From contig CAYGJY010000001.1 of NCBI GenBank assembly GCA_964350645.1, forward strand, positions 1-62,332: a DNA stretch of 62,332 nucleotides, read 5' to 3'. Made by a program: the position numbers and the translations under genes. The number at the start of each line of letters is the position of its first letter. Position 1 is the stretch's first letter. This DNA comes from an uncultured Candidatus Saccharibacteria bacterium. GTDB lineage: Bacteria > Patescibacteriota > Minisyncoccia > Phycocordibacterales > UBA918. Below, in pieces: positions 2,985 to 55,870 of the stretch. A model generated the notes under the pieces. The model was not told the DNA's origin and ran no database searches. It was given only the letters and a program-made list of their open reading frames with translations.

Positions 2985-3025
2985 GGAGTGTCAGCTGAAC
3001 AACAAAAAATGCAAAGCCGATTACC

Positions 3026-6280: not shown

Positions 6281-6321
6281 GTTTGAGACTTGTTATGCTA
6301 TACTCTACATACAACTAAATA

Positions 6322-6458: not shown

Positions 6459-6492
6459 AAGTTGTATATATTATTGAATTAACTAGAACATA

Positions 6493-14046: not shown

Positions 14047-14048
14047 CT

Positions 14049-25389: not shown

Positions 25390-26505
25390 ATGCGGATTCT
25401 TGTTGCGACCGGACTCTACCCACCGGATATTGGGGGACCAGCTACGTACGCTAAGATGCTCGAAACTGAGCTACCGAAGGCGGATATGACACCGACAGTA
25501 TTGCCATTTGGCACGGTGCGACATCTGCCCAAAGGGTTGCGACATCTGGCGTATCTGCAGAGATTATTTCGCGAAGCACGCCAAGCTGATGTGATCTACG
25601 CACTTGATCCGATTAGTGTTGGTGTGCCAACGTGGTTGGTGGCCTGTATTCTCCGGAAGCCCTTTATGGTGCGTCTCGGAGGAGACTATGCATGGGAGCA
25701 GGGTCGTATGCGCTTTGGACTGACGAGTACACTAGATGAATATACGGCCGGCGCGGAGCGCCGGCCACTCCCGGTCAAATTTTTTCGCACACTTCAAACA
25801 TTTGTCGTTACTCGTGCACGCCATGTGGTGCTACCAAGTGAATATCTGAAGAGCATAGTGATGACCTGGGGGGTGTCTGAAGAGCGTATTACTGTGGTGT
25901 ATAGTGCTCTCTTTCCACTCCCGGTCCAGGCACCCCGCGAAACTATTCGCCAGCAGCTATCGTATGAAGGGGTGGTTCTTCTCACCGCTGCTCGACTCAC
26001 CCCCTGGAAAGGGATTGATTGCGTTATCCGTTTAGTGGCCGCTCTAAAAAAAAGTGGTCTTGAGGCGACGTTGATCATTGCTGGAAACGGCGAGGCTAAG
26101 GAGGCACTTGAAGCTGAGGCAGTTGAGCACGATGTGAGGGATCAAGTTCGGTTTGTTGGTAAGCTTTCCAAAGAAGCCTTGGGTGCCGCTATTAAAGGTG
26201 CGGATGTCTTTGTATACAACACGAGCTATGAAGGGCTGCCACACCAGCTCCTTGAAGTGATGGATATTGGTACGCCGATTGTGACTACAGATATTCCAGG
26301 CAATCGTGAAGTTATCAGGGATGGCATTGAAGGCTTGTTAATTCCACATAATGATCTGCCGGCCATGGAAGCCGCCGTTCGTCGGGTGCTCGACAATGAA
26401 CCACTGCGCAATCGGCTCATTGCGAGTGCTCGCGCTCGGACCAAAGATTTTGAACAATCAAAAGTAACCTCTGCTCTTGTCGCCTTATTACAACGCATCG
26501 CATAA
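25390..26505 (+). CDS. glycosyltransferase family 4
   Basis: NTSYEGLPHQLLEVMDIGTPIVTT (EX7E) and GT-B architecture. Confidence 0.85.
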   Translation: MRILVATGLYPPDIGGPATYAKMLETELPKADMTPTVLPFGTVRHLPKGLRHLAYLQRLFREARQADVIYALDPISVGVPTWLVACILRKPFMVRLGGDYAWEQGRMRFGLTSTLDEYTAGAERRPLPVKFFRTLQTFVVTRARHVVLPSEYLKSIVMTWGVSEERITVVYSALFPLPVQAPRETIRQQLSYEGVVLLTAARLTPWKGIDCVIRLVAALKKSGLEATLIIAGNGEAKEALEAEAVEHDVRDQVRFVGKLSKEALGAAIKGADVFVYNTSYEGLPHQLLEVMDIGTPIVTTDIPGNREVIRDGIEGLLIPHNDLPAMEAAVRRVLDNEPLRNRLIASARARTKDFEQSKVTSALVALLQRIA

Positions 26506-26508
26506 TTT

Positions 26509-27657
26509 ATGAAGGTATTAAGTTTTAGTTTAGATCCCCAGGTCCTTGATCCGAGTACGACTACTGCTAAGCGAGTGTCTGGTTACGGACAGTATGTTGA
26601 GAAGTATACGATTATTGTGCCGTCAGCTGAGTCAAAGATCGTAGTACTGTCACCGACAGTAACAGTGTATGGCACAGGTGGTGCTGGGAAGCTTGGCCAA
26701 TTGATTAAACTCTATAACCTCGCTAGTCAGTTATTTAAAAAAGAATCTTATGATGTCGTGAGCACACAAGACCCGTATTATGTTGGTCTGGCCGGCTACG
26801 TGCTATCTGTTCGACACCATATCGGTTTTGAGATCCAAGTACTTGGTTTATATAATTTAAATTTTATAAGAGTGCAACTCGCGCGGTTTTTACTACCGCG
26901 AGCTGGTTCAATGCGAATCTTGAGCGAGGGCTTGAAAACACGCCTCCTTTCAAAAGAGTTTGGTATGCAAACCGACGAGCGTATGCATGTGGTGCCAATT
27001 TATGCAGAGGTATCAACACTTGGATTTGACGAAGCGTCGCTTACTCCTGATGTTCGAACAGAATTCCAAAAAAACAATACTGCATACCAGGCCGCGTATG
27101 GGGAAAGATTTAATTTTGTGACTGTTGGTCGGTTGATTCCAGTAAAGAACCATTCGTTGCAGTTTCAGGCAATTGAAACACTGAAAGCTGATTTCCCTAA
27201 TGTCTTATTGCACATTGTTGGTGACGGGGAAGATCGGACAAAGCTTGAAGCCGAAGTGACTCGCCGGGGTATCACAGAGCAGGTCGTATTTCACGGTGCT
27301 AAATACCATACTGAGTTGGGAACATATTTTACACAGTCTGATTGCTTCGTACTTTCTTCAGATACCGAGGGTTGGGCAATGGTAGCGATTGAAGCGGCTA
27401 CTGCTGGTCTCCCGGTCATTATGACCGACGTGGGTTGTGCTGGCTCGGCCATCATTAATGAAGAGAGTGGTCTGGTTGTCCCGGTTGGCGATGAAGTGGC
27501 TTTGACTGCTGCAATGCGGCGAGTACTGACTGACAAAGCTCTTCGTGAGAAGTTACACCTAGGGTCTCTTGAGGCAATCCGCACTATTGCTACCTTTGAA
27601 GAGATTGCGTCTGGCTGTGTACGTTCGTGGCAGTTGGCTAGTGAGCGGCGCAACTAG
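26509..27657 (+). CDS. glycosyltransferase family 4
   Basis: SSDTEGWAMVAIEAATAGLPVIMT (EX7E). Confidence 0.8.
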   Translation: MKVLSFSLDPQVLDPSTTTAKRVSGYGQYVEKYTIIVPSAESKIVVLSPTVTVYGTGGAGKLGQLIKLYNLASQLFKKESYDVVSTQDPYYVGLAGYVLSVRHHIGFEIQVLGLYNLNFIRVQLARFLLPRAGSMRILSEGLKTRLLSKEFGMQTDERMHVVPIYAEVSTLGFDEASLTPDVRTEFQKNNTAYQAAYGERFNFVTVGRLIPVKNHSLQFQAIETLKADFPNVLLHIVGDGEDRTKLEAEVTRRGITEQVVFHGAKYHTELGTYFTQSDCFVLSSDTEGWAMVAIEAATAGLPVIMTDVGCAGSAIINEESGLVVPVGDEVALTAAMRRVLTDKALREKLHLGSLEAIRTIATFEEIASGCVRSWQLASERRN

Positions 27658-29086
27658 TCCCCGATCAGCCGTATCTTTGAGCACTGGAGCATCTCCGTCG
27701 CGGTATAATGCAGCTGTGAGTTCTGATACCCTACAAAAAAAGATTGATGCTACGCCAGTCACTGACGCTCAGCTGTATAAGCAAAAATCATTTGACCCAT
27801 CAAAGCGGGCCGAGGCTTTACTTGATTCTGTGCTCGGAGGTGATTTGTCTGACGCTGTCATTGAAAAGAAATTAAAATCTATTGCTATTGAAGATGCGAA
27901 GCGAGGTAGTAAGGTAGTGCATCATGATTCCGGCCGAACCAAGTCGCGGGTGTTGTTTGTGACTGAGCAGAAGGAGTATCTAGAGGCAGACAGTACAGCT
28001 CAAAATAAGTTGCGTCTTCAGGCGCTGTTATTTGACGAGGTACACGTGCTGGTACTGACCGATTCAGTCAAACATCAAACAACTATTCGCATCGCTGATA
28101 ATGCTTGGGTGTACAAAACTGGTCACCCGCACTGGTGGGGAAAGTCTAATCAGGCAGTGCAATTTGTGGCTGACGAGCTCATGTTTGCTAACTCATTTCG
28201 GCCAGACATTGTTGTTGCTCTCGATCCACTTTGGTCAGGCCTAGTGGCCTTGGCAATTGCACGTGAGTTTGATCGGCGACTGCAAGTGCACGTAACGGAA
28301 GATTATTTTTCCGCTAGCTATCAAACGAAAACCGAGTATTACCGTTGGCATAGACGACTGTTGAAATATATTCTTAAGCGAGCGGATAGCATCTGTGTGA
28401 GCACGGAAAAATTAAAAACTTCTCTCAGCGATAAAGTAAAAAAACTACCACCGCGTAAAGTGTTGCCACACTTCCATAATTTCACTGGTCTCATGAAAGC
28501 GCAGCCAGTAAGTAATTTTCATGATATTTATAAACAGTTTGTATTTATTATGGTGGCGTTTTTGCCCCTGAAAGCAGATAGTCCATTACAAGATGTCTTC
28601 ACTGCTTTTCATGAAATTCTACGCAATCCTCGGATCGGTTTGATTGTGGTAGGGGAAGGTCCAGCCCGCGCTCTGTATGAAGAAAAGGCAGAACTACTTG
28701 GCATTAAAAAGAATGTGGTGTTTTTATCACATTGTGCTGACTTGGCGTCATGCTTGAAGACGGCCGATATTTTAGTTCAAACTGATGTTAGTAAAGAGAG
28801 CGAAGACATCGTGCTCCAGGCAGCAGCGGCTGGTTTGCCACTGCTGATGTATGAAACCGAACTACGTTTAGATTTGTTCAAGGATGGTGAATCAGCAACG
28901 TTGTGTACACCGGGTGATACATTTAGTTTAACCAAAGAAATGAGTAATTTTCTTAATAATCCAGCCCTGCGTGTCCAATACGCTGAAGCGGCCCAGTATA
29001 TGGTATCGACACGTCTCCATGAAGATGAAACATCCTATTACCAAGCCTACCGTGACATTATTGAATTAGGAATTATTACTGAGTAA
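27569..29086 (+). CDS. GT4-like glycosyltransferase with extra N-terminal region (degenerate EX7E)
   Basis: C-terminal VSKESEDIVLQAAAAGLPLLMY. The track start overlaps the upstream gene by 89 nt; in-frame GTG 27716 is a more plausible start. Confidence 0.6.
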   Translation: MRQSALLLPLKRLRLAVYVRGSWLVSGATSPRSAVSLSTGASPSRYNAAVSSDTLQKKIDATPVTDAQLYKQKSFDPSKRAEALLDSVLGGDLSDAVIEKKLKSIAIEDAKRGSKVVHHDSGRTKSRVLFVTEQKEYLEADSTAQNKLRLQALLFDEVHVLVLTDSVKHQTTIRIADNAWVYKTGHPHWWGKSNQAVQFVADELMFANSFRPDIVVALDPLWSGLVALAIAREFDRRLQVHVTEDYFSASYQTKTEYYRWHRRLLKYILKRADSICVSTEKLKTSLSDKVKKLPPRKVLPHFHNFTGLMKAQPVSNFHDIYKQFVFIMVAFLPLKADSPLQDVFTAFHEILRNPRIGLIVVGEGPARALYEEKAELLGIKKNVVFLSHCADLASCLKTADILVQTDVSKESEDIVLQAAAAGLPLLMYETELRLDLFKDGESATLCTPGDTFSLTKEMSNFLNNPALRVQYAEAAQYMVSTRLHEDETSYYQAYRDIIELGIITE

Positions 29087-29090
29087 TATT

Positions 29091-30200
29091 GTGTCTGCTT
29101 CTACTAACAGTCAGCAAAAAGTGTGTGTTGTTATGCGTCAAGCAACGTTAGGAACACATATGGATTATGTGTATGAAATGGCTAGGAGTCTTCGTGAAGA
29201 AGCTGGTGTGCCATTAACACTGCTCCTGGAAAAACCAACTGCCGAACATGTCTGGCCAGCGTGGGTACAGACGCAGCGCTATAACGTTCCGTTATTACGA
29301 GTCCTAGAAAATGTGTATCGATTATTTCACCTTCGACGCAGCGGACACACTGTCTTCTATGTACATTACTCTTTTGTGAGTGTGATATCGGCCGGGTTAG
29401 TAACAAAGTTGTGTGGTGGCACGGTCTACTATTGGAATTGTGGTATGCCTTGGTTATTTAAGCGCGGTCTTTTTGCTCGCTGGTTTGAGTGGTTAGCTTT
29501 CCAGTCCTTCGATTATTTAGTGACAGGAGCTGATGCGTTGGTCCCAGATTATATGCGTACTTATGGCCTTACTCGTGAACAGATCAAGGTTATTCCTAAC
29601 TGGATCGATCTTCAGTCAGTTACTCGCGATCCAGCAATCCGGAAAAGGGTACGTACGCAACTGAAGATTTCTGAGACTGCACCAGTGCTACTTTTTGTTC
29701 ACAAACTCGTAGAGCGTAAAGGGGCACGCTATTTACCCACGATTTTAAAAAACGCGCCAGTTGGTACGCAGTTAGTCATTGCTGGTGACGGGGAAGAGCG
29801 TACGGCATTAGAAGCTGAATTTAACACGCTCGGTTTGTTAGACCGCGTTCATTTTTTAGGGTATGTCGATCGCGGTGAGGTCAACGATGTACTGCAGGCT
29901 GCTGATGTCTTTGTCATGCCATCTGAAGAAGAAGGCTGCCCACACGCTTTGATTGAAGCGATGGCTTACCAGCTGCCGTTTGTGAGTTTTGCGGTTGGCG
30001 GGGTGCGTGATATGGTGGGACCTGATTTAGCAGCGTATGTCTATGAGGTCGGTGATACTGTAGCGATGAATCAAGGGATCCAAAAATTGTTGACCGATAC
30101 GAATGCTTATCATGAAGTCAAAACAGCGAGCAAAGTTGCTGTAGCAAGCTTTGATAAGCCCAACGTGTTACACCGCTTTAAAGCCCTTCTGACTGGCTGA
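29091..30200 (+). CDS. glycosyltransferase family 4
   Basis: PSEEEGCPHALIEAMAYQLPFVSF (EX7E); GTG start. Confidence 0.8.
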   Translation: MSASTNSQQKVCVVMRQATLGTHMDYVYEMARSLREEAGVPLTLLLEKPTAEHVWPAWVQTQRYNVPLLRVLENVYRLFHLRRSGHTVFYVHYSFVSVISAGLVTKLCGGTVYYWNCGMPWLFKRGLFARWFEWLAFQSFDYLVTGADALVPDYMRTYGLTREQIKVIPNWIDLQSVTRDPAIRKRVRTQLKISETAPVLLFVHKLVERKGARYLPTILKNAPVGTQLVIAGDGEERTALEAEFNTLGLLDRVHFLGYVDRGEVNDVLQAADVFVMPSEEEGCPHALIEAMAYQLPFVSFAVGGVRDMVGPDLAAYVYEVGDTVAMNQGIQKLLTDTNAYHEVKTASKVAVASFDKPNVLHRFKALLTG

Positions 30201-30212
30201 ATATATTTATTT

Positions 30213-31004
30213 ATGAAACCGACTGTTTGTTACATTAGTAGTGCTAGTCATAGCGGCTCGACTGTCCTTGATTTACTGCTAACCGATCGCCTCCAAGCCA
30301 TTGGCTTAGGTGAAGTGGCTTCAGTTTTGAATAATAAACAGACTAATCAAGAAGCGACACACGAACAGTGTGCGTGTGGATTTTTGATGACCCGGTGTTC
30401 TTTCTGGAGTCAGCTGCCTGCCGATCAGAGCGAGCCGTCGATTTCGGCAAAGCAACTCATTGAAAAATATCGTCAAGTGTTTACCTTGGTCGCTTCAGTG
30501 AATCAATCAGTTTTGATTGATTCTTCGAAGAGTCTGAGCGCTCTAACTGCCCTGAAAGAATTACAAGCAACGGGTGAGTGTACACTGAAAGTGATCTACC
30601 TTAAGCGCGACATCAGAGGCTGGGTAACCTCGATGAAACACGTGGCGCGTCGTGATGGCGATCGGTTGTTTTTGATCACCTTGCGGCGGATTTTAAATTG
30701 GGTAAGCATCAATCAAGAAATGACTAGGTATCTATCTGGCAACCGCCTTGACTATCTACCGGTACAGTATGAGAATTTGGTGGCTGACACGGATGCTGTG
30801 GTAAAGCGAATTAGACAGTTTGTTGCAGCTGCAGGGAATCAATCGTCATTTCATCAAGCCTTTGGTAACCGTGCTAAAAATAAGTTTAACCCCGCTGAAC
30901 CCCTGGTGCTTGATCAACGCTGGAAGGATGATTGGACAACTAGAATACTGGTCGGTCTGCTTTCACCGGGTATTTTTGTATATAATTGGTTACTTAAGAT
31001 GTAG
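30213..31004 (+). CDS. sulfotransferase-family protein
   Basis: 5'-PSB-like loop YISSASHSGSTVLDLLL, 3'-PB-like IYLKRDIRGWVTS, and late YENLVADTDAVVKRIRQFV, as in PAPS-dependent sulfotransferases. Confidence 0.65.
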   Translation: MKPTVCYISSASHSGSTVLDLLLTDRLQAIGLGEVASVLNNKQTNQEATHEQCACGFLMTRCSFWSQLPADQSEPSISAKQLIEKYRQVFTLVASVNQSVLIDSSKSLSALTALKELQATGECTLKVIYLKRDIRGWVTSMKHVARRDGDRLFLITLRRILNWVSINQEMTRYLSGNRLDYLPVQYENLVADTDAVVKRIRQFVAAAGNQSSFHQAFGNRAKNKFNPAEPLVLDQRWKDDWTTRILVGLLSPGIFVYNWLLKM

Positions 31005-31010
31005 TTGCAT

Positions 31011-32126
31011 ATGGAAATACAGAAATTAATTTATGTTAATCCTACGAGATTTCCTACAGAAAGAGCTCATGGGATTCAGGTTGGACATATGTGCTCAGCG
31101 TTTTCTGCTCAGAGCATTGATGTTTGTATGGTTTCACCAAAATCGAGGAGGGCTATAAAGATTGAACCGTTTGAGTATTATAATTTAGATAATAGATTTA
31201 AATTAAAAAACGTTGCTGGGAACTTTTTTCCACCAAGGTACAAATTGGGTCTAATAATAAACGTTTTAATTTTCGCTTTTTCTGCTTATATTTATATTCG
31301 CAAGTCCGATGTTGGTTCTATAATATATTCACGCGATGAATATGTTCTAGCAGTTATTTCTCTGCTTGCACCAAGACGTAAATTAGTTTGGGAATCACAT
31401 GAAGCAAAATATAATTTTGCTGCTAGATTTCTATTTAAGAAGAACATAAAAGTGATTGTTATTTCAGAGGGGATTAAAAAGTTTTATATTGACTGTGGAA
31501 TCTCTGTAGAGAAATTATGTGTGGCACACGATGCAATTGATGATTCATTTTTTGCGCAGACTGAATCTAGAGAAATTATGAGAAAGAAATTAGGAATTTC
31601 AGTTTCAAAGCCTGTCGTTATGTATATTGGTGGGCTCGATATATGGAAAGGGGTGGAGACATTATTTGAAGTGTCTAAGCTATCAAATGATTTTCAAGTT
31701 GTCGTTATAGGAGGTCGCTTAGAAGAAGTAGACAGATATTCGCGGCGATACCCAAAAATTATTTTTTTGGGTTTTAAACCATATAGCGAGTTGCCAAATA
31801 ATCAACAAGTAGCTGATGTTTTGGTAATACCAAACACCGGAAAAAGTAGTCTTGCTGCTCTATATACATCCCCCTTGAAACTTTTTGCTCACATGACTTC
31901 AAATATTCCAATTGTTGCCTCTGATGTCCCTAGTCTTAAAAGTGTATTAAAAGACACAGGAATTTATTTTCAGGCTGATGAGCCTAATTCGTTGTTGGAA
32001 TCTTTGAACTACGTAATTAATAATAGATTTGCTGCTTCGGAAAAAGCAAAGGCTGCATTCGATATGAGTTTGGCTTATACATGGAAATTTAGGGCAAAGA
32101 AAATATTAAATTTTATAGCATCTTAA
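31011..32126 (+). CDS. glycosyltransferase family 4 (low-GC)
   Basis: GT-B layout with C-terminal YTSPLKLFAHMTSNIPIVAS. The track start is TTG 31005. Confidence 0.7.
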   Translation: MEIQKLIYVNPTRFPTERAHGIQVGHMCSAFSAQSIDVCMVSPKSRRAIKIEPFEYYNLDNRFKLKNVAGNFFPPRYKLGLIINVLIFAFSAYIYIRKSDVGSIIYSRDEYVLAVISLLAPRRKLVWESHEAKYNFAARFLFKKNIKVIVISEGIKKFYIDCGISVEKLCVAHDAIDDSFFAQTESREIMRKKLGISVSKPVVMYIGGLDIWKGVETLFEVSKLSNDFQVVVIGGRLEEVDRYSRRYPKIIFLGFKPYSELPNNQQVADVLVIPNTGKSSLAALYTSPLKLFAHMTSNIPIVASDVPSLKSVLKDTGIYFQADEPNSLLESLNYVINNRFAASEKAKAAFDMSLAYTWKFRAKKILNFIAS

Positions 32127-32128
32127 TT

Positions 32129-33670
32129 ATGGAGTCAGTTTTAAAGTACGACATATGTATTGTTGGGGCAGGTATGATGGGGCTTGCAATGGCTAACGAA
32201 ATGAAAGAATCTGGGAAAAAGATTTGTGTAATTGAATCAGGCTTTACTAGTTCAGTGAGTAAGCAAAAAAAAGTACTCAGCACTGACTTGGTTTTAAAAA
32301 ACAATACCAGAGAGCGTGGTCTGGGCGGCTCGACTCAAACATGGTGGGGTTTAACTGGCTTACTAGATAGTTTAGATTTGATGAATTTAGAAAATCCTGT
32401 AGTTGATATGTGGCCTATTAAGTATTCAGTTTTACAGCAGTACTGCAAAATAGCGGCTGGTAAATATGATTTCCCCCCATTAGAGATCTTTCTTGACGAA
32501 GAATATAAAAGAACTTTAATTACAAGTGAGGATACATTGGTCGGTGAGGTTTTTGCAGCAAAAAAACCAGTAAGATTTGCTGAAAAATATTCGAATCTTT
32601 TTGAAAGAGATAATGTCGATTTAATAAATAATACGACTGTTGCAGAGGTTTCAGCTAAAGTATGTGGTCGGGTTGATGGAGTAAAGTGCTTAAGAAAGGA
32701 TGGAGCTAACATAAAAGAAATTTATGTTGAAGCAAAAATTGTTGTTTTGACTGCGGGTGGTATTGAGAATTCAAGAATTCTCCTCAACTCAAAAAACTTT
32801 TTCACATTAAATCCACAGGCTCCCAGAAATGTAGTCGGCAGATTTATCATGAATCATCCAAAAGGTTTTTATGGGTTTATCAATAATGTTGATTATAAAA
32901 AACTCAAAGCTCATTTGGTTAAGGTTGAAAATGGGATTAAGTCATATATTGGCATTGCACTAAGTCAGGAAGAGCGAAAAAGACTTGGTTTGTCACATTC
33001 ATATGTTCAACTTGTTCCTGAGTACCCGTGGTTGAGTAATAATACTTTTTTGTATTTAGTCAACCAAAAAAATAAATTCTTAAAGATTTCTGTTAAAGAA
33101 AAAGAGGGTTTTTCTGCGTATAATGAAAAAAAGAAAAATTGGGACCTTTTGGATCTTATCCAAGGATTGTATTATTTTGTACATTTAAGTTTACTCAAGA
33201 TATGTAAATTAGAACCTTCATTCAAGAATGTTAGAATTAGAAATTATATAGATATTGCCTCTAGGTATGAAAATTGCATTAGTCTTTCTACCGAACTTGA
33301 TGAGTATGGAATGCCGATTCCTGAATATAATATTAAAATTTCAGAACACGACAAAAAATCTTTGATAAAAATTCATACTGAACTAAAAAAAATTTGTGAA
33401 ATAAAAAATTTAGGTAAGTACGTTGGTGATTTATCTTCTGAAAAGCTCTGGCCTATTGCAACAGATGCAGCCCACCATATGGGGGGCGCACGCATGGGAG
33501 TTAATTCTAAAACATCTGTTGTCGATGCTGATTTAAAGATGCATGGGATTGAGAATCTTTACGTGGCTGGTACGTCAGCAATGCCAACAGGTGGTAATAT
33601 CAATCCATCGTTGGTAGGATTGGCATTATCAGTAAGATTAGCGGAACACTTAAATGAAAGCTTTATATAA
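32129..33670 (+). CDS. GMC-family FAD-dependent oxidoreductase
   Basis: YDICIVGAGMMGLAMA dinucleotide fold and C-terminal HHMGGARMG ... LYVAGTSAMPTGGNINPS. Confidence 0.8.
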   Translation: MESVLKYDICIVGAGMMGLAMANEMKESGKKICVIESGFTSSVSKQKKVLSTDLVLKNNTRERGLGGSTQTWWGLTGLLDSLDLMNLENPVVDMWPIKYSVLQQYCKIAAGKYDFPPLEIFLDEEYKRTLITSEDTLVGEVFAAKKPVRFAEKYSNLFERDNVDLINNTTVAEVSAKVCGRVDGVKCLRKDGANIKEIYVEAKIVVLTAGGIENSRILLNSKNFFTLNPQAPRNVVGRFIMNHPKGFYGFINNVDYKKLKAHLVKVENGIKSYIGIALSQEERKRLGLSHSYVQLVPEYPWLSNNTFLYLVNQKNKFLKISVKEKEGFSAYNEKKKNWDLLDLIQGLYYFVHLSLLKICKLEPSFKNVRIRNYIDIASRYENCISLSTELDEYGMPIPEYNIKISEHDKKSLIKIHTELKKICEIKNLGKYVGDLSSEKLWPIATDAAHHMGGARMGVNSKTSVVDADLKMHGIENLYVAGTSAMPTGGNINPSLVGLALSVRLAEHLNESFI

Positions 33671-34118
33671 ATTTTTTAATAGAATTTCGGTCTTTATTTC
33701 AAGTAAATTCCATACTTATTTATTTAAAGATTGTGGCAAAAAATTAAGAGTTAATGGAAGAATTAAAGTGTCTGCCCCTGAAAAAATTTCGGTTGGATCT
33801 TTTACTAGTATTAGCGATGGAGTGTATTTAAGTGGCAAAGGTGGATTGGAGATAGGATCTTGGGTTAATATTTCAAATCACGCAAGCATTAATTCAGCAG
33901 GCCTAGTTCTTGAAGGGAAGCTCGGAAACAGACAGCACTTTTTTAAAAGAGTTATCTTAGAAGATGGGTGTTGGATTGGAGCTGGGGCGATAGTATTAGC
34001 AGGAGTAAAAATTGGAGCCAATGCAGTTGTTGGAGCCGGTTCAGTTGTTACGAAAGATGTGCCAGCTGATACAGTAGTTGTTGGTTCACCAGCGCGGGTT
34101 ATCAAATCTATAGAATAA
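33654..34118 (+). CDS. hexapeptide-repeat (LbH) acetyltransferase
   Basis: GAGAIVLAGVKIGANAVVGAGSVVTKDVPADTVVVGSPARVIK. Confidence 0.8.
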   Translation: MKALYKFFNRISVFISSKFHTYLFKDCGKKLRVNGRIKVSAPEKISVGSFTSISDGVYLSGKGGLEIGSWVNISNHASINSAGLVLEGKLGNRQHFFKRVILEDGCWIGAGAIVLAGVKIGANAVVGAGSVVTKDVPADTVVVGSPARVIKSIE

Positions 34119-34126
34119 TTATTACA

Positions 34127-34798
34127 ATGAAAAAAAATCTACAGCATTGGCTTACAAAGAAACTCTCGCAGCCAGATATTGAGAGGTTATGTATTGAAGA
34201 GGCAACAACAGAGGATAAAAAGGTTTTGATTGTACATTCTGATGATATGGCTTATGACTATTGCTTTCCCAGGCATGATAAAGCTAATACCAAAAAACTT
34301 GAAGGTGTGAGCATTATTGCCAAAGCATATTATGAGCACATTCCAGTTCCTGACAACTCCTATGATGCAATTATTTGTACAGGTCTTTTAGAACATGTCC
34401 CCGACCCCCAAAAAGTATTGAAAGAGTTTAATAGAATATTGACGAAGGGTGGCAAAGTCGTTTTATCAGCAAGTTATGCGTTCTCAACGCATAATGCTCC
34501 AGACAATTATTTTCACTTCACAGTCTATGGCATGAGGTTGCTTTTAGAGAGTGCAGATTTTTCTATTGAAAGAGTTAAGCCTTCGTGTAGACCATTTCGG
34601 ACTCTAGCAATCTTACTTCAGCGAATTTGTTACCAGACTGATATGATGATGCCAGTTAAAGTACTTTTCTTCTTAGTGGCTAAGATTATTCCACTGTTCG
34701 ATAACTTTATTAGGAAAGATTACGGAAGTATTGACAAAGATATTCAAATGGAAAGTTCTCTTTATTCAAATGTCCAAGCAGTTGCTTTAAAAATTTAA
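34127..34798 (+). CDS. class I SAM-dependent methyltransferase
   Basis: YDAIICTGLLEHVPDPQKVLKEFNRILTKGGKVVL. Confidence 0.75.
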   Translation: MKKNLQHWLTKKLSQPDIERLCIEEATTEDKKVLIVHSDDMAYDYCFPRHDKANTKKLEGVSIIAKAYYEHIPVPDNSYDAIICTGLLEHVPDPQKVLKEFNRILTKGGKVVLSASYAFSTHNAPDNYFHFTVYGMRLLLESADFSIERVKPSCRPFRTLAILLQRICYQTDMMMPVKVLFFLVAKIIPLFDNFIRKDYGSIDKDIQMESSLYSNVQAVALKI

Positions 34799-34803
34799 TC
34801 TGT

Positions 34804-36030
34804 TTAAAATTCTTCTGTTTTGAAGGCCCACAATAAGATGAGAAACCTAAAAAACATTGCTAACACTATGCCTATAGCCACACCTGTAAGGCCTGAATAT
34901 ATTATCCCGGCAGAGACTAAAATAATTCGTACTGTCAGAGTCAATATATTTATTGCATAGAGTTTTTTTTCATTTGAGTAGAAAACTAAAGCTTGATAGA
35001 TCAAAAATATACTTGAAAAAGGCAGCATCCATATAATTATTTGGGTTAATAATACTGATTCAGGGTATTGTGGGAATAGTAATGGCAAAACAAAAGGTGC
35101 TGCTATTACGTATAGCAAAGAAATAAAACTAAATATACTAAATAAACTGACTGTCTTGCTGTACAAAATTTTTTTAATTTTAGTTTTGTCGATCTCCGTA
35201 ATTTTTGGTAATGCAAGTATTCGAAGCATTTTTTGAATTCTGGTCATTTCTCTAACTGGTAGGGCGGCGAGTGCATATGTGGCTAGTGCGGTGGCACCTA
35301 AAATATTAAAAATTAGTAACTGGTGAACCATTTTTTCAAATTCAACAATTGAAATATTTGTACTCCTGTGTAACGCTTTTGTGGGACTTTGATTGACCAG
35401 CTGTGCTACGTGTTCATTCCGGGTCATTTTTATGGCGATGTATAGTAAAATTCCACTTACTACTATATTTGATAATAAATATATTGATACTAATTGAGTT
35501 ATATTGCTGATGGTAAATATAGCAAGAATTATAAAAACTGTGGGTATTAAGCTATAGATCGAGTCAAATATTGCTTGCTTCTTAAATTCTTTACGTGCTG
35601 TAAAGATAGTACTGTAAAAGGAAAATCCCTTGAAAAAGGGAAATGTAACTGCTGCTATAAGTATAGAGATTCCTAAGGCCTCACCAGCTGAATAAAAATA
35701 ATAAATTGAAATAAGTAAACCGACTCCAGCAATTGGAAGCGCATAAACTATAAATTTAGTTATATTATTTATTAATACATTACTTTCTTTATTTCTAACT
35801 CCTTGGATAATGCTGTACTGAACGCCTCGCAGGGAGAAAATACTGAATAGAGTAATTAGAGTTAGAATAAACTGATACTGTCCGAAAAGTTCCTTATCTA
35901 GATAATTTGCAAATGCATAAGCTGTGGCTAGACCACAAAGTATGCCGACTAGACTCGCAGCCGATAGATTACTTAGGCCATTAATTAAATATGAGTTTTT
36001 TCGGATAAAAGTATTTATTTTTTTATTCAT
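34804..36030 (-). CDS. Wzx-like oligosaccharide flippase (MOP superfamily)
   Basis: 408 aa, about 12 hydrophobic segments, in a glycan-locus context. No sharper motif was recognised. Confidence 0.6.
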   Translation of the reverse strand: MNKKINTFIRKNSYLINGLSNLSAASLVGILCGLATAYAFANYLDKELFGQYQFILTLITLFSIFSLRGVQYSIIQGVRNKESNVLINNITKFIVYALPIAGVGLLISIYYFYSAGEALGISILIAAVTFPFFKGFSFYSTIFTARKEFKKQAIFDSIYSLIPTVFIILAIFTISNITQLVSIYLLSNIVVSGILLYIAIKMTRNEHVAQLVNQSPTKALHRSTNISIVEFEKMVHQLLIFNILGATALATYALAALPVREMTRIQKMLRILALPKITEIDKTKIKKILYSKTVSLFSIFSFISLLYVIAAPFVLPLLFPQYPESVLLTQIIIWMLPFSSIFLIYQALVFYSNEKKLYAINILTLTVRIILVSAGIIYSGLTGVAIGIVLAMFFRFLILLWAFKTEEF

Positions 36031-36134
36031 CGTACTTGGGCATGATTGATTTCTGGTTTATCTTGGTATGTATTGTAACCTTAGTTTATCTGCTATAGTT
36101 TTTAAGTTTATAACACTTTTTTCAAATCACCAGA

Positions 36135-37781
36135 ATGCGCAAGTCATCAAATTTACTTAATCTTAAACGCTTTAACCTAAAAGACCGTCAGCTGTTCGAT
36201 CTTGAATTACTGATGGTGGGCGGATTTGCGCCACTTGAAGGTTTTATGAATGAAACTGAGTATCAATCGGTTGTTAGTGATATGCGCTTGGGAGATGGGT
36301 CATTGTTTCCCATTCCGATTGTGCTTGATATTCCAGACAGCGCCGACTTTGCCGAGGGTGAGTCGATTCTACTCTGTGACCCGTTTGGTAATCCTTTGGC
36401 AACGATGGAAGTGAACTCTCGCTATCAACCAAATAAACTTAGGGAAGCAGAAGCAGTATATGGCACGACGGATATGCTGCACCCTGGTGTGCGCTACCTA
36501 CTGAACCAAATGCACGACACATACATTGGTGGCAAGATCACTAAACTTCAGCTTGAGTCGAGACATGACTTCAAAGATCTCCGTTACACACCAGCAGAAC
36601 TCAAAGCTGTGTTTAAAGAGAAAGGTTGGGATACGGTAGTTGCATTCCAGACGCGCAATCCAATGCACCGAGTTCACTTTGAGCTCGTGAAGCGTGCCCA
36701 TGAGAAAACTGGTGCTCCGGTATTGGTTCATCCGGTTGTTGGTATGACTCGGGAAGGGGATATTGATTATATTACTCGGGTACATACGTATCGAGTGGTG
36801 TGTGAAAAATATGGTAAGGATTTTACCTTCTTAGCACTTTTGCCGCTGGCGATGAGAATGGCTGGACCGCGCGAAGCACTGTGGCATATGATCGTGCGGA
36901 AGAATTATGGGGCGACGCACTTTATTGTGGGTCGAGATCATGCTGGTCCAGGTAAAGATAGCAATGGAAAGCCATTTTACGAACCGTATGAAGCACGTGA
37001 TATTGCGGAGAAATATGCAACTGAAATTGGGATAGAGGTAGTGCCGAGTGATGAGCTCGCATACTCTGCTAAGCGTGAGGAGTATGTCAGCACTGACCAG
37101 TTAGAGACTGACGAAGAAGTGCTTGGAATTTCCGGTACAGAATTTCGTCAGAAACTTTTTGCTGGTGAGGCTATTCCAGAATGGTTCTCATTTCCTGAAA
37201 GTATTTCTGAGTTACAAGTTGGTGTAGCAAAACAAAAGCGCCGTGGAGTAACAATTTTTTTCACGGGCTTGTCTGGTGCAGGGAAATCGACTATCGCCAA
37301 TATTGTTGCGGGCAAGCTGCTCGAAATGCAAGACCGAGAAATTACGCTACTCGACGGTGATGTTATTCGGAATCATTTAACCTCTGAGCTTGGTTTTTCC
37401 AAGGAACATCGCGACTTGAATGTACAGCGGGTAGGGTATGTTGCCAGTGAAATAACAAAACATGGAGGAATCGCTGTGTGTTCACTGATTGCTCCGTACC
37501 AGCAGGCCCGGGACAAAGCCCGCGAAATGGTGGAAGAGCGGGGGACATTTGTCGAAGTCTTCGTTTCGACACCACTTGCTGTATGTGAAGAGCGAGACGT
37601 GAAGGGTCTGTACAAAAAAGCTCGCAAGGGTCTCATTAAGCAATTCACGGGGATTGATGACCCGTATGAAGAACCGATTCGAGCAGAGTTAGTGATTGAC
37701 GCAAGCTTGGATGATCCTGGAAAAAATGCTGATAAGGTTATTGAGTACTTGGTGCAAAAGACTATTGTTTCCAGTAGATAA
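36135..37781 (+). CDS. bifunctional sulfate adenylyltransferase / adenylylsulfate kinase (PAPS synthase)
   Basis: ATP-sulfurylase motifs FQTRNPMHRVHFEL and VGRDHAGPG, followed by the APS-kinase P-loop FFTGLSGAGKSTIA. Confidence 0.92.
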   Translation: MRKSSNLLNLKRFNLKDRQLFDLELLMVGGFAPLEGFMNETEYQSVVSDMRLGDGSLFPIPIVLDIPDSADFAEGESILLCDPFGNPLATMEVNSRYQPNKLREAEAVYGTTDMLHPGVRYLLNQMHDTYIGGKITKLQLESRHDFKDLRYTPAELKAVFKEKGWDTVVAFQTRNPMHRVHFELVKRAHEKTGAPVLVHPVVGMTREGDIDYITRVHTYRVVCEKYGKDFTFLALLPLAMRMAGPREALWHMIVRKNYGATHFIVGRDHAGPGKDSNGKPFYEPYEARDIAEKYATEIGIEVVPSDELAYSAKREEYVSTDQLETDEEVLGISGTEFRQKLFAGEAIPEWFSFPESISELQVGVAKQKRRGVTIFFTGLSGAGKSTIANIVAGKLLEMQDREITLLDGDVIRNHLTSELGFSKEHRDLNVQRVGYVASEITKHGGIAVCSLIAPYQQARDKAREMVEERGTFVEVFVSTPLAVCEERDVKGLYKKARKGLIKQFTGIDDPYEEPIRAELVIDASLDDPGKNADKVIEYLVQKTIVSSR

Positions 37782-37784
37782 CAT

Positions 37785-38258
37785 ATGCGCTGGATTACAA
37801 ACAAATGGCATGGAGTGAATAATACAGTAAGGGCTATGTATGTGCGTGCTGTATGTAAGCATGTAGGACACTCTTTATTTGTAAATGGGGGTATTTTTCT
37901 TCGGTCACCAGAAAATATTTCTATCGGAGATCATTGTTCACTCAACCATAATGTGACACTGTCGGCTCGGGGTAGCATTGACATAGGTGATTATGTCCAC
38001 ATTTCTTCAAATACAGTTATCAATTCAGCTGGCCTTGATTACAGCAAGTCCAGAGAATCACGTGGACATATCAAGAAAAAGACTATTTTAGAAAATGGTG
38101 CCTGGATTGGGTCTGGTTCAATTATTAATCCTGGGGTTACAGTTGGAGAGAATGCAGTTGTTGGGGCCGGTTCAGTTGTTACGAAAGATGTGCCAGCTAA
38201 CACTGTGGTGGTTGGTGTCCCAGCACGAGTTATAAAAGAGATATCTTATAAAGAATAG
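37785..38258 (+). CDS. hexapeptide-repeat (LbH) acetyltransferase, paralogue of 33654..34118
   Basis: GSGSIINPGVTVGENAVVGAGSVVTKDVPANTVVVGVPARVIK. Confidence 0.8.
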   Translation: MRWITNKWHGVNNTVRAMYVRAVCKHVGHSLFVNGGIFLRSPENISIGDHCSLNHNVTLSARGSIDIGDYVHISSNTVINSAGLDYSKSRESRGHIKKKTILENGAWIGSGSIINPGVTVGENAVVGAGSVVTKDVPANTVVVGVPARVIKEISYKE

Positions 38259-38323
38259 GAATTTAGGAATATTTAAAGTGTTGACTTATAACTTCAGGAT
38301 GGGATACTGCGAAATATTTTTGT

Positions 38324-40327
38324 ATGAGTAAGAAAGCTATTGAGTACAGAAGTGACATAGATGGCTTACGAGCTCTTGCGATACTACCAGTAGTTTTATT
38401 TCATGCTGGAGTAACTGGCTTTGCCGGCGGTTACATCGGTGTCGATATCTTTTTTGTTATTTCCGGTTTTTTGATCACTTCGATTATCTTAAAAGAGATT
38501 GAAGCTGGGACTTTTTCTTTGCTCCATTTTTGGGAACGAAGAATTCGAAGAATTGTACCGGTACTTTTTTTTATACTTTGTAGCGTGACTATAGTTGCTT
38601 ATTTTCTAGTTCTATATCCCGTTGACTTTATTTCTTATGGTCAGGCGTTGTTTGCACAGAGTATTTTTATAGCGAATATATTTTTTATGAGGCAATATGA
38701 TTATTTTGCAGGACCTGCAGAAGCAATGCCTCTTTTACATACATGGTCATTGTCTGTCGAAGAGCAGTTTTATTTACTCTTGCCACTTTTGCTAGTGACT
38801 TTAATTTTTATTTCGAGAAGACTAATCGTTCCAGTCCTTGCAGGACTGCTATTAGTTTCATTCGCTTACTCGTTTTTTCTAGTTAACTTAAACCCGTTAG
38901 AGAGTTTCCAATTTTTTATTAGTGGCATTTGGGGAGGTGCTACCAACACTACTGCTGGGTTTTATTTTTTACCAGCGCGAGCTTGGGAGTTGTTAACAGG
39001 TTCGTTACTAGCCTGTGGGATAATTGTAATTAGGAATAATATTCTCTCTGAGTTTCTATCAGTTTTGGGTTTGCTATTGATTATTTTTTCGGTCATTTAT
39101 ACAGATGTTACTAAACCTTTCCCAGGTGTATGGGCACTACTTCCAGTTATAGGGACTGGACTAATCATTTCAGCAAATACTCATTCAGATACATTTACCA
39201 AAAGACTTTTATCGTTTCCTGCTTTTGTGTCAGTTGGTCTTATTTCCTATTCACTCTATCTTTGGCATTGGCCATTAATTGTTTTCGCAAAAATTATTTT
39301 TACACAGTTTACTCAGATTGTGTTACTGGGGACTCTCGCATTTACATTTGTACTATCAATTTTAACGTACAGGTATATCGAACAGCCTTTTCGTAGAAGT
39401 AACATATTAAAAAAGACGTGGCAGGTTTATCTTGCTGGGATCGGAGCGCTAGTAGTCATGTTTAGTATCGGTTTTTATATTCATGTGAGTGCCGGTTTGC
39501 CAGAGCGATCTCCAGACACGCTACAAGCTATAGCTGCTGCAGCAGTTGATGTGAACCCGCGTCAGTACGAGTGTTTCAAGAAGAATTATCGGGAAATACT
39601 CGATGAACCTAAGCCCTGCTTATTGGGGGCGCAAGTGTCACTTGAAGATGTTTCATTTGTTATGTGGGGAGACAGTCATTCAGACGCATTAATGCCGGCA
39701 GTAGATGAAATGTTGTTAGAGAGAGGAAAGACAGGGGCTTATTTTGGTACAGGTGGCTGCGTGCCTATTTTTTTGATTGAACCAATTTCTGAAGATCCAA
39801 AATGTGAACGTGTTAAGAGCGATGCAATTGATTATATTAATGAAAATAAAATTAAGACGGTCATGCTGGTTGGTGATTGGAAAAGTAATCAAGGTCTGTT
39901 GTCTATAAGTAATATGAAAACGCTAGAAAATATTGGTTATAGAGATATAACTTTCTTAGAGGCTGTACAATCGACATTAAATTTATTTGAACATAACCCT
40001 GATGTATATGTAATTGCGAGAGTGCCAGCATTTGATAATTTTAGTATTCGTAAAATCTTTCAAGAATACAAATCAGAAGATTTATCTGTTGAACTACCAA
40101 GCAAAAGTCTTCTTCAACATAGAACAGATACTCAGTATGAATTCACAGCTTTTCAAGTTCTAGAAAAAGGTGATTGGATAACTCTGATTGATCCTGCAGA
40201 TGTGCTATGTAGGCAAGATAATGTTTGTTCAATGCAGTTAGAGGGTCAAATTATTTACAGTAACGGGACACATATTAATGCAAGCGGTGCTAGTGTATTA
40301 AAGAATTTGTTGTACGTTATTGAATAG
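38324..40327 (+). CDS. OafA-type acyltransferase-3 membrane domain fused to an SGNH-like domain
   Basis: IDGLRALAILPVVLFH, GYIGVDIFFVISGFLIT, HTWSLSVEEQFY, and C-terminal VMWGDSH. Confidence 0.85.
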   Translation: MSKKAIEYRSDIDGLRALAILPVVLFHAGVTGFAGGYIGVDIFFVISGFLITSIILKEIEAGTFSLLHFWERRIRRIVPVLFFILCSVTIVAYFLVLYPVDFISYGQALFAQSIFIANIFFMRQYDYFAGPAEAMPLLHTWSLSVEEQFYLLLPLLLVTLIFISRRLIVPVLAGLLLVSFAYSFFLVNLNPLESFQFFISGIWGGATNTTAGFYFLPARAWELLTGSLLACGIIVIRNNILSEFLSVLGLLLIIFSVIYTDVTKPFPGVWALLPVIGTGLIISANTHSDTFTKRLLSFPAFVSVGLISYSLYLWHWPLIVFAKIIFTQFTQIVLLGTLAFTFVLSILTYRYIEQPFRRSNILKKTWQVYLAGIGALVVMFSIGFYIHVSAGLPERSPDTLQAIAAAAVDVNPRQYECFKKNYREILDEPKPCLLGAQVSLEDVSFVMWGDSHSDALMPAVDEMLLERGKTGAYFGTGGCVPIFLIEPISEDPKCERVKSDAIDYINENKIKTVMLVGDWKSNQGLLSISNMKTLENIGYRDITFLEAVQSTLNLFEHNPDVYVIARVPAFDNFSIRKIFQEYKSEDLSVELPSKSLLQHRTDTQYEFTAFQVLEKGDWITLIDPADVLCRQDNVCSMQLEGQIIYSNGTHINASGASVLKNLLYVIE

Positions 40328-40462
40328 TAAAAAAGGTTTTTTTTATTTATAAAAACCTCAACACTTCTAAGGTCAGAATAGAATATACTCAGAATTTGAT
40401 ATCGATCCTGAAGATCACTTACTTGGTATGATATTCTAAATTAAATAATTTTTATTTTACTT

Positions 40463-54701: not shown

Positions 54702-54708
54702 GCTTTTA

Positions 54709-54728
54709 TCGTCTAGACGAGTTTTTTT
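54709..54728 (+). terminator. intrinsic terminator
   Basis: TCGTCTAGACGA palindrome followed by GTTTTTTT. Confidence 0.6.
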
Positions 54729-55867: not shown

Positions 55868-55870
55868 CGT

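Follow-up and report, generated by a model that had tools for sequence, protein, structure and literature searches.

Our analysis indicates that this stretch of DNA, from a Saccharibacteria-like (CPR) bacterium, likely carries a glycan-sulfation module, embedded in a surface-glycan locus that depends on Wzx. We consider it probable that the surface glycan is sulfated, because a fused PAPS synthase, Sat-CysC, is kept at the same spot in related genomes, beside sulfotransferases that vary. By the window we mean the whole stretch that was analysed, a 62-kb part (62,332 nucleotides) of a contig of 464,680 bp, in which ORFs of at least 100 aa were scanned. The closest genome matches come from MAGs of Candidatus Saccharibacteria and Kaiserbacteria (77–83% identity), in keeping with the CPR-like host that had been suspected from the sequence.

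A Pfam scan of the window ORFs recognised the neighbours of the two sulfur genes. Six GT4 glycosyltransferases were found, five of them within a same-strand run (25390..32126) and one, at 15421..16668, on the minus strand. The features of the locus are:

25390..26505, plus strand: GT4 glycosyltransferase that opens the same-strand run (Glycos_transf_1, 133.6 bits; gene also in the strain locus L001)
26509..27657, plus strand: GT4 glycosyltransferase (Glycos_transf_1, 129.9 bits; 45% identity to a GT4 of L022)
27641..29086, plus strand: GT4 glycosyltransferase (Glycos_transf_1, 62.1 bits; start set as in L001, where the called gene has 481 aa; the longest ORF begins at 27569)
29091..30200, plus strand: GT4 glycosyltransferase (Glycos_transf_1, 116.9 bits), which stops 12 nt before the sulfotransferase start
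30213..31004, plus strand: sulfotransferase of 263 aa, assigned by Pfam, PDB profile and fold to the CurM-ST/TPST-like branch of Sulfotransfer_3
31011..32126, plus strand: GT4 glycosyltransferase that opens a low-GC cassette (34% by per-gene GC; Glycos_transf_1, 49.4 bits; 40–43% identity to GT4s of L006, L021, L023 and L028)
32129..33670, plus strand: GMC-family FAD oxidoreductase with a pyranose-oxidase-like C-terminus (GMC_oxred_C, 78.3 bits; weak pyranose_ox match; homologue in L021), a probable sugar oxidation step
33654..34118, plus strand: hexapeptide-repeat acyltransferase (Hexapep, 42.1 bits; 66% identity to the L021 copy)
34127..34798, plus strand: SAM-dependent methyltransferase (Methyltransf_11, 51.6 bits; 68% identity to the L021 copy)
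34804..36030, minus strand: Wzx-type flippase (Polysacc_synt, PF01943, 55.6 bits; about 10 hydrophobic segments)
36135..37781, plus strand: bifunctional ATP sulfurylase/APS kinase, the PAPS synthase (548 aa; PUA-like, Sat and CysC domains)
37785..38258, plus strand: second hexapeptide-repeat acyltransferase (Hexapep, 54.2 bits)
38324..40327, plus strand: AT3-SGNH membrane O-acyltransferase (SGNH, 115.5 bits; Acyl_transf_3, 85.9 bits), predicted to O-acetylate the glycan outside the membrane
42464..44473, minus strand: second AT3-SGNH O-acyltransferase (SGNH, 145.7 bits; Acyl_transf_3, 106.6 bits)
44597..46789, plus strand: Wzy_C-TPR membrane protein (Wzy_C, 74.3 bits, plus TPR repeats; about 11 hydrophobic segments), a putative O-antigen ligase, polymerase or oligosaccharyltransferase-like protein

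With a Wzx flippase, several glycosyltransferases and a Wzy_C-domain protein, the locus is of the Wzx/Wzy type. A gene of the AT3-SGNH type also adjoins Sat-CysC in L022 and L023. Among the ORFs scanned across the window there is no priming phosphoglycosyltransferase of the WbaP/Bac_transf or WecA/MraY type, and none of the unannotated ORFs has a membrane segment; the priming gene may be located in another part of the genome. A weak Peptidase_C39_2-like protein, below the Pfam cut-off, is encoded at 40463..42445, and its homologue in L022 has a CBM96 domain.

The original prediction, made from the letters alone, had described sulfotransferase loops in a 263-aa ORF and, about 5 kb downstream, an ATP sulfurylase/APS kinase fusion, both among GT4s, a flippase, a methyltransferase and acetyltransferases. 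The loops are indeed there (SHSGST at residues 12–17 and LKRDIRGWVTS at residues 130–140), the two genes are 5.1 kb apart, and the Pfam domains bear out the setting. The prediction had proposed an HMM search, a structure prediction and a synteny comparison, and all three came out in its favour.

In the mechanism that we propose, Sat-CysC would turn sulfate and two ATP into PAPS in the cytoplasm. The sulfotransferase would then move the sulfuryl group from PAPS to a sugar hydroxyl of a lipid-linked oligosaccharide, while this is assembled on the cytoplasmic side of the membrane. Neighbouring enzymes would also oxidise, methylate and acylate the glycan unit. Wzx would flip the unit outward, the AT3-SGNH proteins would O-acetylate the flipped unit outside, and the Wzy_C-TPR protein would polymerise it or join it to its final carrier. 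That the acceptor is a glycan is suggested by the gene context, and we infer that sulfation takes place before flipping.

The family of the 263-aa protein is well supported. Its Pfam match to Sulfotransfer_3 (PF13469) scores 31.4 bits against a gathering cut-off of 27, a small margin of 4 bits. When the PDB was searched with a profile of the protein's family, however, 52 of 52 matches had the sulfotransferase fold, led by CurM ST (4gbm, E-value 4e-15) and OLS ST (4gox, 7e-14), with TPST at 6e-9; identity to these structures is about 18–21%. An AF2 model (pLDDT 84.6, pTM 0.86) gave the same picture in Foldseek, where 4gbm, TPST, 4gox and Stf0 were the best matches and the nine top-ranked were all sulfotransferases. 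TM-scores were about 0.45–0.55, and nucleotide kinases, adenylate kinase included, stood lower in the list. At the level of profiles and a predicted fold, membership in the PAPS-dependent sulfotransferase superfamily is confirmed.

One could argue that PAPS is made and used here but that its acceptor is not a glycan. The acceptor would then be a protein tyrosine (as with TPST or RaxST), a membrane lipid or a small molecule, and the position in the locus would reflect no more than co-regulation with the envelope. The best sequence and fold relatives of the sulfotransferase lend some weight to this idea, as CurM ST and OLS ST act on acyl-ACP and the tyrosylprotein sulfotransferases on protein tyrosines, not on sugars. 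The C39-like protein nearby could be brought forward as well, but its match is below the cut-off and its L022 homologue bears CBM96. PKS, ACP and RiPP substrate genes are absent. The sulfotransferase gene is also tightly placed between two co-oriented GT4 genes, 12 nt from one and 0–6 nt from the other. Finally, all six genomic contexts examined for its family are polysaccharide clusters, and members of the family occur in such clusters in other phyla too. In L029 the family member lies between Wzy_C and Wzx, L030 and L004 are glycan clusters, and a locus of a Terriglobia MAG (L012) has Sat-CysC, an Inositol_P-family (CysQ-like) phosphatase and the sulfotransferase in this order. We therefore regard a non-glycan acceptor as rather unlikely.

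The glycan reading also needs a source of PAPS, and Sat-CysC has every mark of one. Its Pfam domains come in the expected order (PUA_2, ATP-sulfurylase at 270.8 bits and APS_kinase at 209 bits), and it matches the NCBIfam equivalog NF004040 with 790.1 bits against a cut-off of 669. The alignment to the Aquifex enzyme (PDB 2GKS; E-value 2e-176) spans 534 residues, and all catalytic motifs align and are intact: QTRNPMHRVH, GRDHAGPG, the P-loop GLSGAGKST, LLDGDVIR, SLIAPY and KGLYKKAR. By sequence, the enzyme is a canonical ATP sulfurylase/APS kinase of the bifunctional type, with a C-terminal kinase domain rather than a regulatory domain of the fungal type.

We compared the window with nine related loci, most of them from MAGs labelled Saccharibacteria, which makes ten loci in all. 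The order in the nine is the same: variable glycan genes, Sat-CysC, Wzy_C-TPR, MurB and SecA. Wzx is directly upstream of Sat-CysC in all of them except L027. Wzy_C-TPR followed by MurB is found in every related locus that reaches far enough downstream and forms a conserved downstream anchor. Sat-CysC is the most conserved gene of the locus. Identity to the window copy is 77–83% for Sat-CysC and 69–73% for SecA, but only 24–31% for Wzx, and therefore a fixed PAPS supply appears to serve variable glycans.

Sulfotransferases accompany this supply in most cases. A Pfam-recognised sulfotransferase is encoded within 10 kb of Sat-CysC in 6 of the 10 loci, the window included, so the pairing exceeds chance. 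Two further loci have a sulfotransferase-like NKWYS candidate within the same distance; in L024 and L028 no sulfotransferase is recognisable within 10 kb of Sat-CysC. The partners belong to at least four subfamilies: a "type B" Sulfotransfer_1/3 in L021, L022, L023 and L013, a second Sulfotransfer_1 in L023, a Sulfotransfer_2 in L006, and the window-type sulfotransferase as the fourth.

These patterns allow a broader and more tentative reading, which we consider possible but would not bet on. PAPS synthesis could belong to the conserved core functions that a Saccharibacteria lineage inherits vertically, and could be used only to sulfate a strain-variable surface glycan by means of interchangeable sulfotransferases. 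If this is true, then a fixed sulfate-donor gene is the anchor of a hypervariable glycan cassette that is exchanged horizontally and has swappable sulfotransferases, and Pfam NKWYS (PF10364) is one previously unrecognised sulfotransferase family. In that case, epibiont–host recognition or phage and immune evasion in these ultrasmall bacteria would largely be determined by the negatively charged sulfated glycan.

Alternatively, Sat-CysC could be an ordinary assimilatory enzyme that feeds a PAPS reductase encoded elsewhere, with its place in a glycan locus and the nearby sulfotransferase being incidental. The enzyme does belong to the canonical assimilatory family (NF004040), and the 62 kb inspected belong to a contig that is at least 465 kb long. 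Nevertheless, we find this explanation very unlikely, for the following reasons. First, the place of Sat-CysC beside Wzx and Wzy_C-MurB is kept in nine related loci, with several sulfotransferase subfamilies near it. Second, cys genes adjoin it in none of the loci. The original prediction had noted that no cysH/cysI-type genes are visible, and we find no cysH, cysI, cysJ, sir or cysK among the ORFs scanned across the window (100 aa or longer), and no CysH, CysIJ/Sir or cysteine synthase in the annotated 10-kb flanks of the related loci. Third, Saccharibacteria have been reported to be without amino-acid biosynthesis. Fourth, a survey of groundwater CPR bacteria (PMC12114108) reports a PAPS synthase and no genes for sulfur reduction.

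We infer that PAPS is not used for assimilation, and the earlier suggestion that its supply is dedicated to glycan decoration gains support from a Sat-CysC that is fixed and most conserved within a hypervariable glycan locus with varied sulfotransferases. Two accessory functions are absent from the window ORFs scanned: there is no sulfate transporter or permease and, unlike in the Terriglobia locus L012, no PAP phosphatase (CysQ/Inositol_P or NrnA).

The sulfotransferase itself also appears to be a working enzyme. Conservation was measured over 144 members of its family, and 141–144 of them keep the 5'-PSB loop, Glu34 and the 3'-PB motif. The near invariance of these elements points to a catalytic role that the family has conserved. 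The counterpart of the PKxGTT-like 5'-PSB strand–loop–helix is S12-H13-S14-G15-S16-T17, which matches PRSGST of CurM ST in the alignment, and S14, G15, S16 and T17 are 90–99% conserved. Where the canonical loop has Lys/Arg, the window protein has a His, which is the norm in its family (114 of the 144 members). The 3'-PB motif, an Arg followed after seven residues by a Ser at a strand–helix junction, is here Y129-LKRDIRGWVTS140 and aligns with that of CurM and TPST; position 132 is R or K, and D133, R135 and S140 are conserved at 99%, 100% and 97%. Glu34 lies in the motif GLGE and shows 98% conservation; its aligned counterparts are the Glu of "PPELH" in CurM ST and that of "CGEE" in TPST1, which we take to be the catalytic ones. 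The general base is a His in cytosolic sulfotransferases and a Glu in TPST and CurM ST, and Glu34 would play this part here.

That the 263-aa protein is instead inactive, or a P-loop-like protein without sulfotransferase activity (e.g., a nucleotide-binding scaffold) while another enzyme spends the PAPS, could be read from the His in the 5'-PSB loop, the slim Pfam margin and the kinases among the fold matches, but it is highly improbable given the missing Walker-A GK[ST] motif, the significant PDB profile matches, which are all of the sulfotransferase fold, and the near invariance just described.

A glycan-sulfation module of this kind has partial counterparts in other bacteria. Cyanobacteria assimilate sulfate. 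The xss (synechan) cluster of Synechocystis PCC 6803 produces a sulfated exopolysaccharide of the Wzx/Wzy type, with sulfotransferases of distinct subfamilies (PF00685, PF03567 and PF13469; PMC8205485). Like the window, it has its sulfotransferase genes among glycosyltransferases and a flippase, and sulfation decorates the repeat unit in xss (PMC8205485). The xss gene list, however, is without a PAPS synthase (PMC8205485), whereas in the window's locus the PAPS synthase is included and is the most conserved gene. The window's host also differs, as a CPR bacterium that has a small genome and no outer-membrane export system, and its sulfotransferase is of another subfamily.

In rhizobia, NodP/NodQ and NodH sulfate the Nod factor, and LpsS and KpsS are glycan sulfotransferases. 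The likeness of the window's locus to NodPQ/NodH lies in a dedicated copy of PAPS synthesis that is clustered with a sulfotransferase and decorates a surface or secreted glycoconjugate. NodPQ, in contrast, is of the heterodimeric CysD/CysN-CysC GTPase type, whereas the window enzyme is of the homo-oligomeric Sat type fused to CysC; acceptor and organism differ as well. The Aquifex aeolicus SAT/APS kinase (2GKS) has the identical domain order of PUA-like, ATP sulfurylase and APS kinase domains; it is discussed under sulfur metabolism and not as part of a glycan locus.

The original prediction had called a sulfated envelope glycan in such an organism unusual. For CPR bacteria this is fair because our literature search found no report, and the host lineage and the conserved layout seem to be unreported. 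It does not extend to the individual parts: PAPS-synthase-plus-sulfotransferase modules and sulfated bacterial glycans are of known kinds.

The closest solved relatives of the window's sulfotransferase, CurM ST (4GBM), OLS ST (4GOX) and the TPSTs, resemble it in having a Glu as general base, a 5'-PSB loop of the form xSGST and the 3'-PB motif. The window protein is a stand-alone enzyme in a glycan context and not a PKS domain. Its family also differs from all three in an invariant CxCG..C..FW and His cluster of its own (Cys53, Cys55, Cys62 and His214).

The original prediction had set a PAPS synthase fusion and a sulfotransferase among glycan genes, and the Pfam content of the neighbouring ORFs confirms this setting:

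15421..16668 (-), a GT4 glycosyltransferase, the sixth of the window
25390..32126 (+), the five other GT4 glycosyltransferases
30213..31004 (+), the sulfotransferase (ST), 263 aa
33654..34118, a hexapeptide acyltransferase, 154 aa
34804..36030 (-), a Wzx-type flippase
36135..37781 (+), the PAPS synthase (Sat-CysC), 548 aa
37785..38258, a second hexapeptide acyltransferase, 157 aa
near ST and Sat-CysC, a GMC oxidoreductase and a methyltransferase
near Sat-CysC, two AT3-SGNH O-acyltransferases
44597..46789 (+), downstream of Sat-CysC, a Wzy_C-TPR membrane protein
downstream of the glycan genes, MurB, SecA, Obg and GatB

Judged by protein identity, the PAPS synthase is the best-conserved gene of a locus whose content otherwise changes, since its neighbours score lower (see the table) and most of the window's glycosyltransferases lack a counterpart in related loci. 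The window is part of a 464,680-bp contig. When its Sat-CysC is compared with a species-level genome collection, the nearest proteins (75–83% identity) come from MAGs labelled Candidatus Saccharibacteria, two Kaiserbacteria and one “uncultured bacterium.” Downstream, gene order is the same in the window and in these MAGs: Wzy_C-TPR, MurB, SecA, a holin-like gene, Obg and GatB. A Saccharibacteria-like origin, and with it the predicted CPR-like host, is well supported. We compared nine further distinct loci: L021 (=L005), L022 (=L008), L023, L006, L024 (=L007), L025/L026, L027, L028 and the partial L013. In all nine, Sat-CysC lies between a variable glycan block and the conserved Wzy_C-TPR/MurB pair, and a divergently oriented Wzx gene is found immediately upstream of it in all related loci except L027.

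Table. Identity of proteins from related loci to the window protein
Sat-CysC, 77–83%
GatB, 75%
SecA, 69–73%
Obg, 66–72%
MurB, 49–53%
Wzy_C-TPR, 46–52%
Wzx, 24–31%

Sat-CysC (36135..37781; compared with 48365..50890) is better conserved than SecA, Obg and MurB of the same loci. Purifying selection is thus surprisingly strong, given that the gene is presumed to be accessory. Between Sat-CysC and Wzy_C-TPR there seems to be a hot spot for insertions. This interval is occupied by acyltransferases and a secreted protein in the window, and carries insertions in L024 (11700..16700), L025/L026 (11900..18400) and L028 (11751..13104): Fic/RhuM genes, RelB-ParE toxin-antitoxin pairs, IS1595 and Y1 transposases and a nuclease.

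The fusion of ATP sulfurylase to APS kinase is confirmed, with QTRNPMHRVH, GRDHAGPG and GLSGAGKST all present. Its Pfam domains are PUA_2, ATP-sulfurylase (270.8 bits) and APS_kinase (209 bits). It scores 790 bits against the NCBIfam equivalog NF004040, [quoted passage not shown] (cut-off 669), and aligns over 534 residues with the bifunctional enzyme of Aquifex aeolicus (2GKS, 2e-176). Because both active sites retain their motifs in the sequence and in the 2GKS alignment, the C-terminal domain should be a real kinase and not a regulatory domain of the fungal type.

The predicted 5'-PSB and 3'-PB motifs, which bind the phosphosulfate and the phosphate, are present in the translation of the sulfotransferase (MKPTVCYISSASHSGST and VIYLKRDIRGWVTSMKH). 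It scores 31.4 bits against Pfam Sulfotransfer_3 (gathering cut-off 27) and 22.2 bits against Sulfotransfer_1. Used alone in a phmmer search of the PDB, the protein found only a chance match, a secretin (E 0.1); detection required a profile, A1, built from the window ST and 12 homologues. A1 matched 52 PDB sequences, every one a sulfotransferase or an enzyme of that fold. CurM ST (4gbm, 4e-15) and OLS ST (4gox, 7e-14) come first, then TPST1 and TPST2 (6e-9 to 5e-8), then cytosolic SULTs, StaL and Teg12. The AF2 model (pLDDT 84.6, pTM 0.86; confidence low for residues 41–50, mean pLDDT 58) gives a similar picture in Foldseek, where 4gbm, TPST1/2, 4gox and Stf0 rank first (E 3e-6 to 3e-5, TM about 0.5). 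One could also argue for a P-loop fold of another kind, without a PAPS pocket. Nucleotide kinases of related P-loop fold do appear in the Foldseek list, below the sulfotransferases; sequence and predicted fold together speak against this alternative and for a sulfotransferase. The Walker-A Lys is absent from the sequence. None of the sulfotransferases discussed here is covered by an NCBIfam model.

A word-indexed homologue search returned 13 relatives, which suggested a rare family. We dropped this reading as an artefact of the method, since an exhaustive profile search with a cut-off of E≤1e-30 gave 2,167 cluster representatives, which makes the family a large one. Over 144 family members, the following are 90–100% conserved: S14-G15-S16-T17 of the 5'-PSB loop, G33-E34, C53, C55, C62, W65, D103, S105, K106, D133, R135 and S140 of the 3'-PB motif (position 132 is R or K), H214, N219 and W237. 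At the canonical Lys/Arg position of the 5'-PSB the window ST has His, which is the family norm (114 of 144). In the A1 alignments with PDB sequences, E34 falls on a Glu in CurM ST (segment “PPELH”) and in TPST1 (segment “CGEE”), residues which we take to be catalytic bases. The 144 members also share C-x-C-G-x5-C-x-F-W (residues 53–65) and His214. Conservation of this Cys3-His cluster (C53, C55, C62, H214) across the family suggests a structural metal site; such a cluster is not known from the solved CurM ST or TPST structures. A C-terminal membrane anchor was rejected, with the Kyte-Doolittle maximum of the C-terminal helix (1.49) below the usual 1.6. At most this helix may associate peripherally with the membrane.

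The nearest solved relatives of the window ST use acceptors other than carbohydrate, unlike the glycan acceptor proposed here. Gene context points to a carbohydrate. In L029 the order is Wzy_C, ST, Wzx; in L030 an ST of the same family lies among glycosyltransferases and sugar-nucleotide enzymes, and in L004 with a methyltransferase and an epimerase. In L015 (Chloroflexia) a Sat-CysC lies 3 kb downstream of the ST, and Glyphos_transf and PMT genes are close by. L012 (a Terriglobia MAG) has a compact module at 2697..6844, all on one strand, of polysaccharide deacetylase, Sat-CysC, an Inositol_P (CysQ-like) phosphatase, which has no counterpart in the window, and ST. Judging from these neighbourhoods, the family is habitually a glycan-cluster enzyme repeatedly linked to PAPS synthesis, which supports a carbohydrate acceptor.

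A sulfotransferase gene lies within 10 kb of Sat-CysC in six of ten loci (window included), and these genes are non-orthologous among loci:

window, CurM-like type
L021, L022, L023 and L013, “type B” Sulfotransfer_1/3 with canonical GAQKSGTSW and LRNPVDRAISQY motifs
L023, a second sulfotransferase, Sulfotransfer_1
L006, Sulfotransfer_2

The 10-kb flanks in L024 and L028 hold no recognisable sulfotransferase; a 249-aa P-loop protein of L024 reached no family assignment. In several loci an NKWYS gene (PF10364, titled “putative capsular polysaccharide synthesis protein” in Pfam) stands directly beside Sat-CysC:

L006, 11627..12406 (-)
L025/L026, 9111..9995 (-)
L027, 11701..12465 (-)

At least seven NKWYS homologues are on contigs equal in size to those of Sat-CysC matches, and three of these NKWYS/Sat-CysC pairs are confirmed to share a contig (P0141/P0035, P0147/P0034 and P0154/P0061). 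The NKWYS segments PGRVGS and LVRDPVAIMxSY resemble 5'-PSB and 3'-PB motifs. Profile-to-PDB and profile-to-profile comparisons were negative. The top two Foldseek matches of the AF2 model, itself confident (pLDDT 92.6), are SULT1C3 with PAP, both weak (E 0.03–0.07, TM 0.33–0.37). Because all these statistics are weak, we keep NKWYS as a candidate only; the data are suggestive of a so far unrecognised sulfotransferase family.

What would the PAPS be used for? None of cysH, cysIJ, sir and cysK was found among the window ORFs scanned or in any annotated flank of the related loci. A survey of groundwater CPR (PMC12114108) likewise reports a PAPS synthase without any genes for sulfur reduction. We infer that PAPS serves decoration rather than assimilation. 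The predicted sulfated surface glycan also gains support from the conserved position of Sat-CysC in glycan loci with diverse sulfotransferases near, and we consider glycan sulfation a probable function of the locus. The ST would have to sulfate on the cytoplasmic face of the membrane, since its donor PAPS is cytoplasmic and the enzyme has neither signal peptide nor membrane span (sequence, hydropathy). Its substrate would be the growing lipid-linked unit, which fits the tight packing between GT4 genes: ST starts 12 nt past one, and the next follows after 0–6 nt. From the known roles of the families, Wzx would then flip the sulfated unit, the AT3-SGNH proteins would O-acetylate it externally, and the Wzy_C-TPR protein would transfer or polymerise it, with wall polymer, lipid or protein as candidate carriers. 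A priming phosphoglycosyltransferase, a sulfate importer and a PAP phosphatase are absent from the 62-kb window. Scans for promoters and terminators found no excess over shuffled sequences and were uninformative on operon structure.

Among bacteria, sulfated polysaccharides are regarded as rare. Of the proven systems, the xss cluster for synechan, a sulfated exopolysaccharide, comes closest, and there sulfotransferases likewise lie among glycosyltransferases, Wzx and Wzy; its authors state that sulfotransferases were not known from other bacterial EPS clusters and regarded sulfated polysaccharides as unreported outside cyanobacteria (PMC8205485). The window differs from known glycan sulfation systems in its CPR lineage, in the PAPS synthase as a conserved anchor inside the locus and in its diverse partner sulfotransferases. 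Dedicated PAPS use has further precedents in NodPQ/NodH and LpsS of rhizobia and in Stf0 of mycobacteria. Our literature searches turned up no paper that describes sulfated glycans, or sulfotransferases, from Saccharibacteria or CPR, only a passing mention of PAPS synthase in groundwater CPR (PMC12114108). Each part of the module is of a known kind; the lineage is unexpected and poorly understood.

CPR bacteria, Saccharibacteria among them, live attached to bacterial hosts, and their host range is believed to depend on surface molecules. Very little has been reported on the chemistry of CPR surfaces. That PAPS synthase is retained in a very small genome, outranks SecA in conservation and is wired into a variable glycan locus suggests that sulfate esters are an important, perhaps general, envelope feature of Saccharibacteria/CPR. 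The conserved architecture makes glycan sulfation testable, directly so in cultivated Saccharibacteria. The small carbohydrate sulfotransferases predicted in these loci may also serve as biocatalysts.

Several minor observations concern the rest of the window. Composition breaks sharply at the ST/GT4 junction: the genes of 31005..36030 have 32–37% GC (GC3 23–32%), as against 45–46% GC for ST and Sat-CysC, and 37785..42445 is also low in GC. Compared with the sister strain (L001/L002), the native-GC stretch at 23.5–31.0 kb is about 98% identical and the low-GC cassette at 31.0–34.1 kb 99.8–100%; the latter seems to be a glycan cassette that was transferred or swept recently. The two hexapeptide acyltransferase paralogues flank the methyltransferase/Wzx/Sat-CysC segment, and both match a single L021 copy (66% and 53% identity). 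A short S-adenosylmethionine synthetase (6493..7440, 315 aa) has a SAM-I riboswitch upstream of it (6320..6427, Rfam RF00162, 57.2 bits). At 12043..15446, sugar-nucleotide enzymes enclose two genes, one for a TraG/VirD4/HerA-like P-loop ATPase (667 aa) and, after it, one for a membrane-anchored protein with lamin-tail and PKD domains. The last 8 kb or so (53814..62332), with slightly higher GC (48–49%) and only short or Pfam-less ORFs, one with a weak HTH_17 match, may be mobile or of phage origin.
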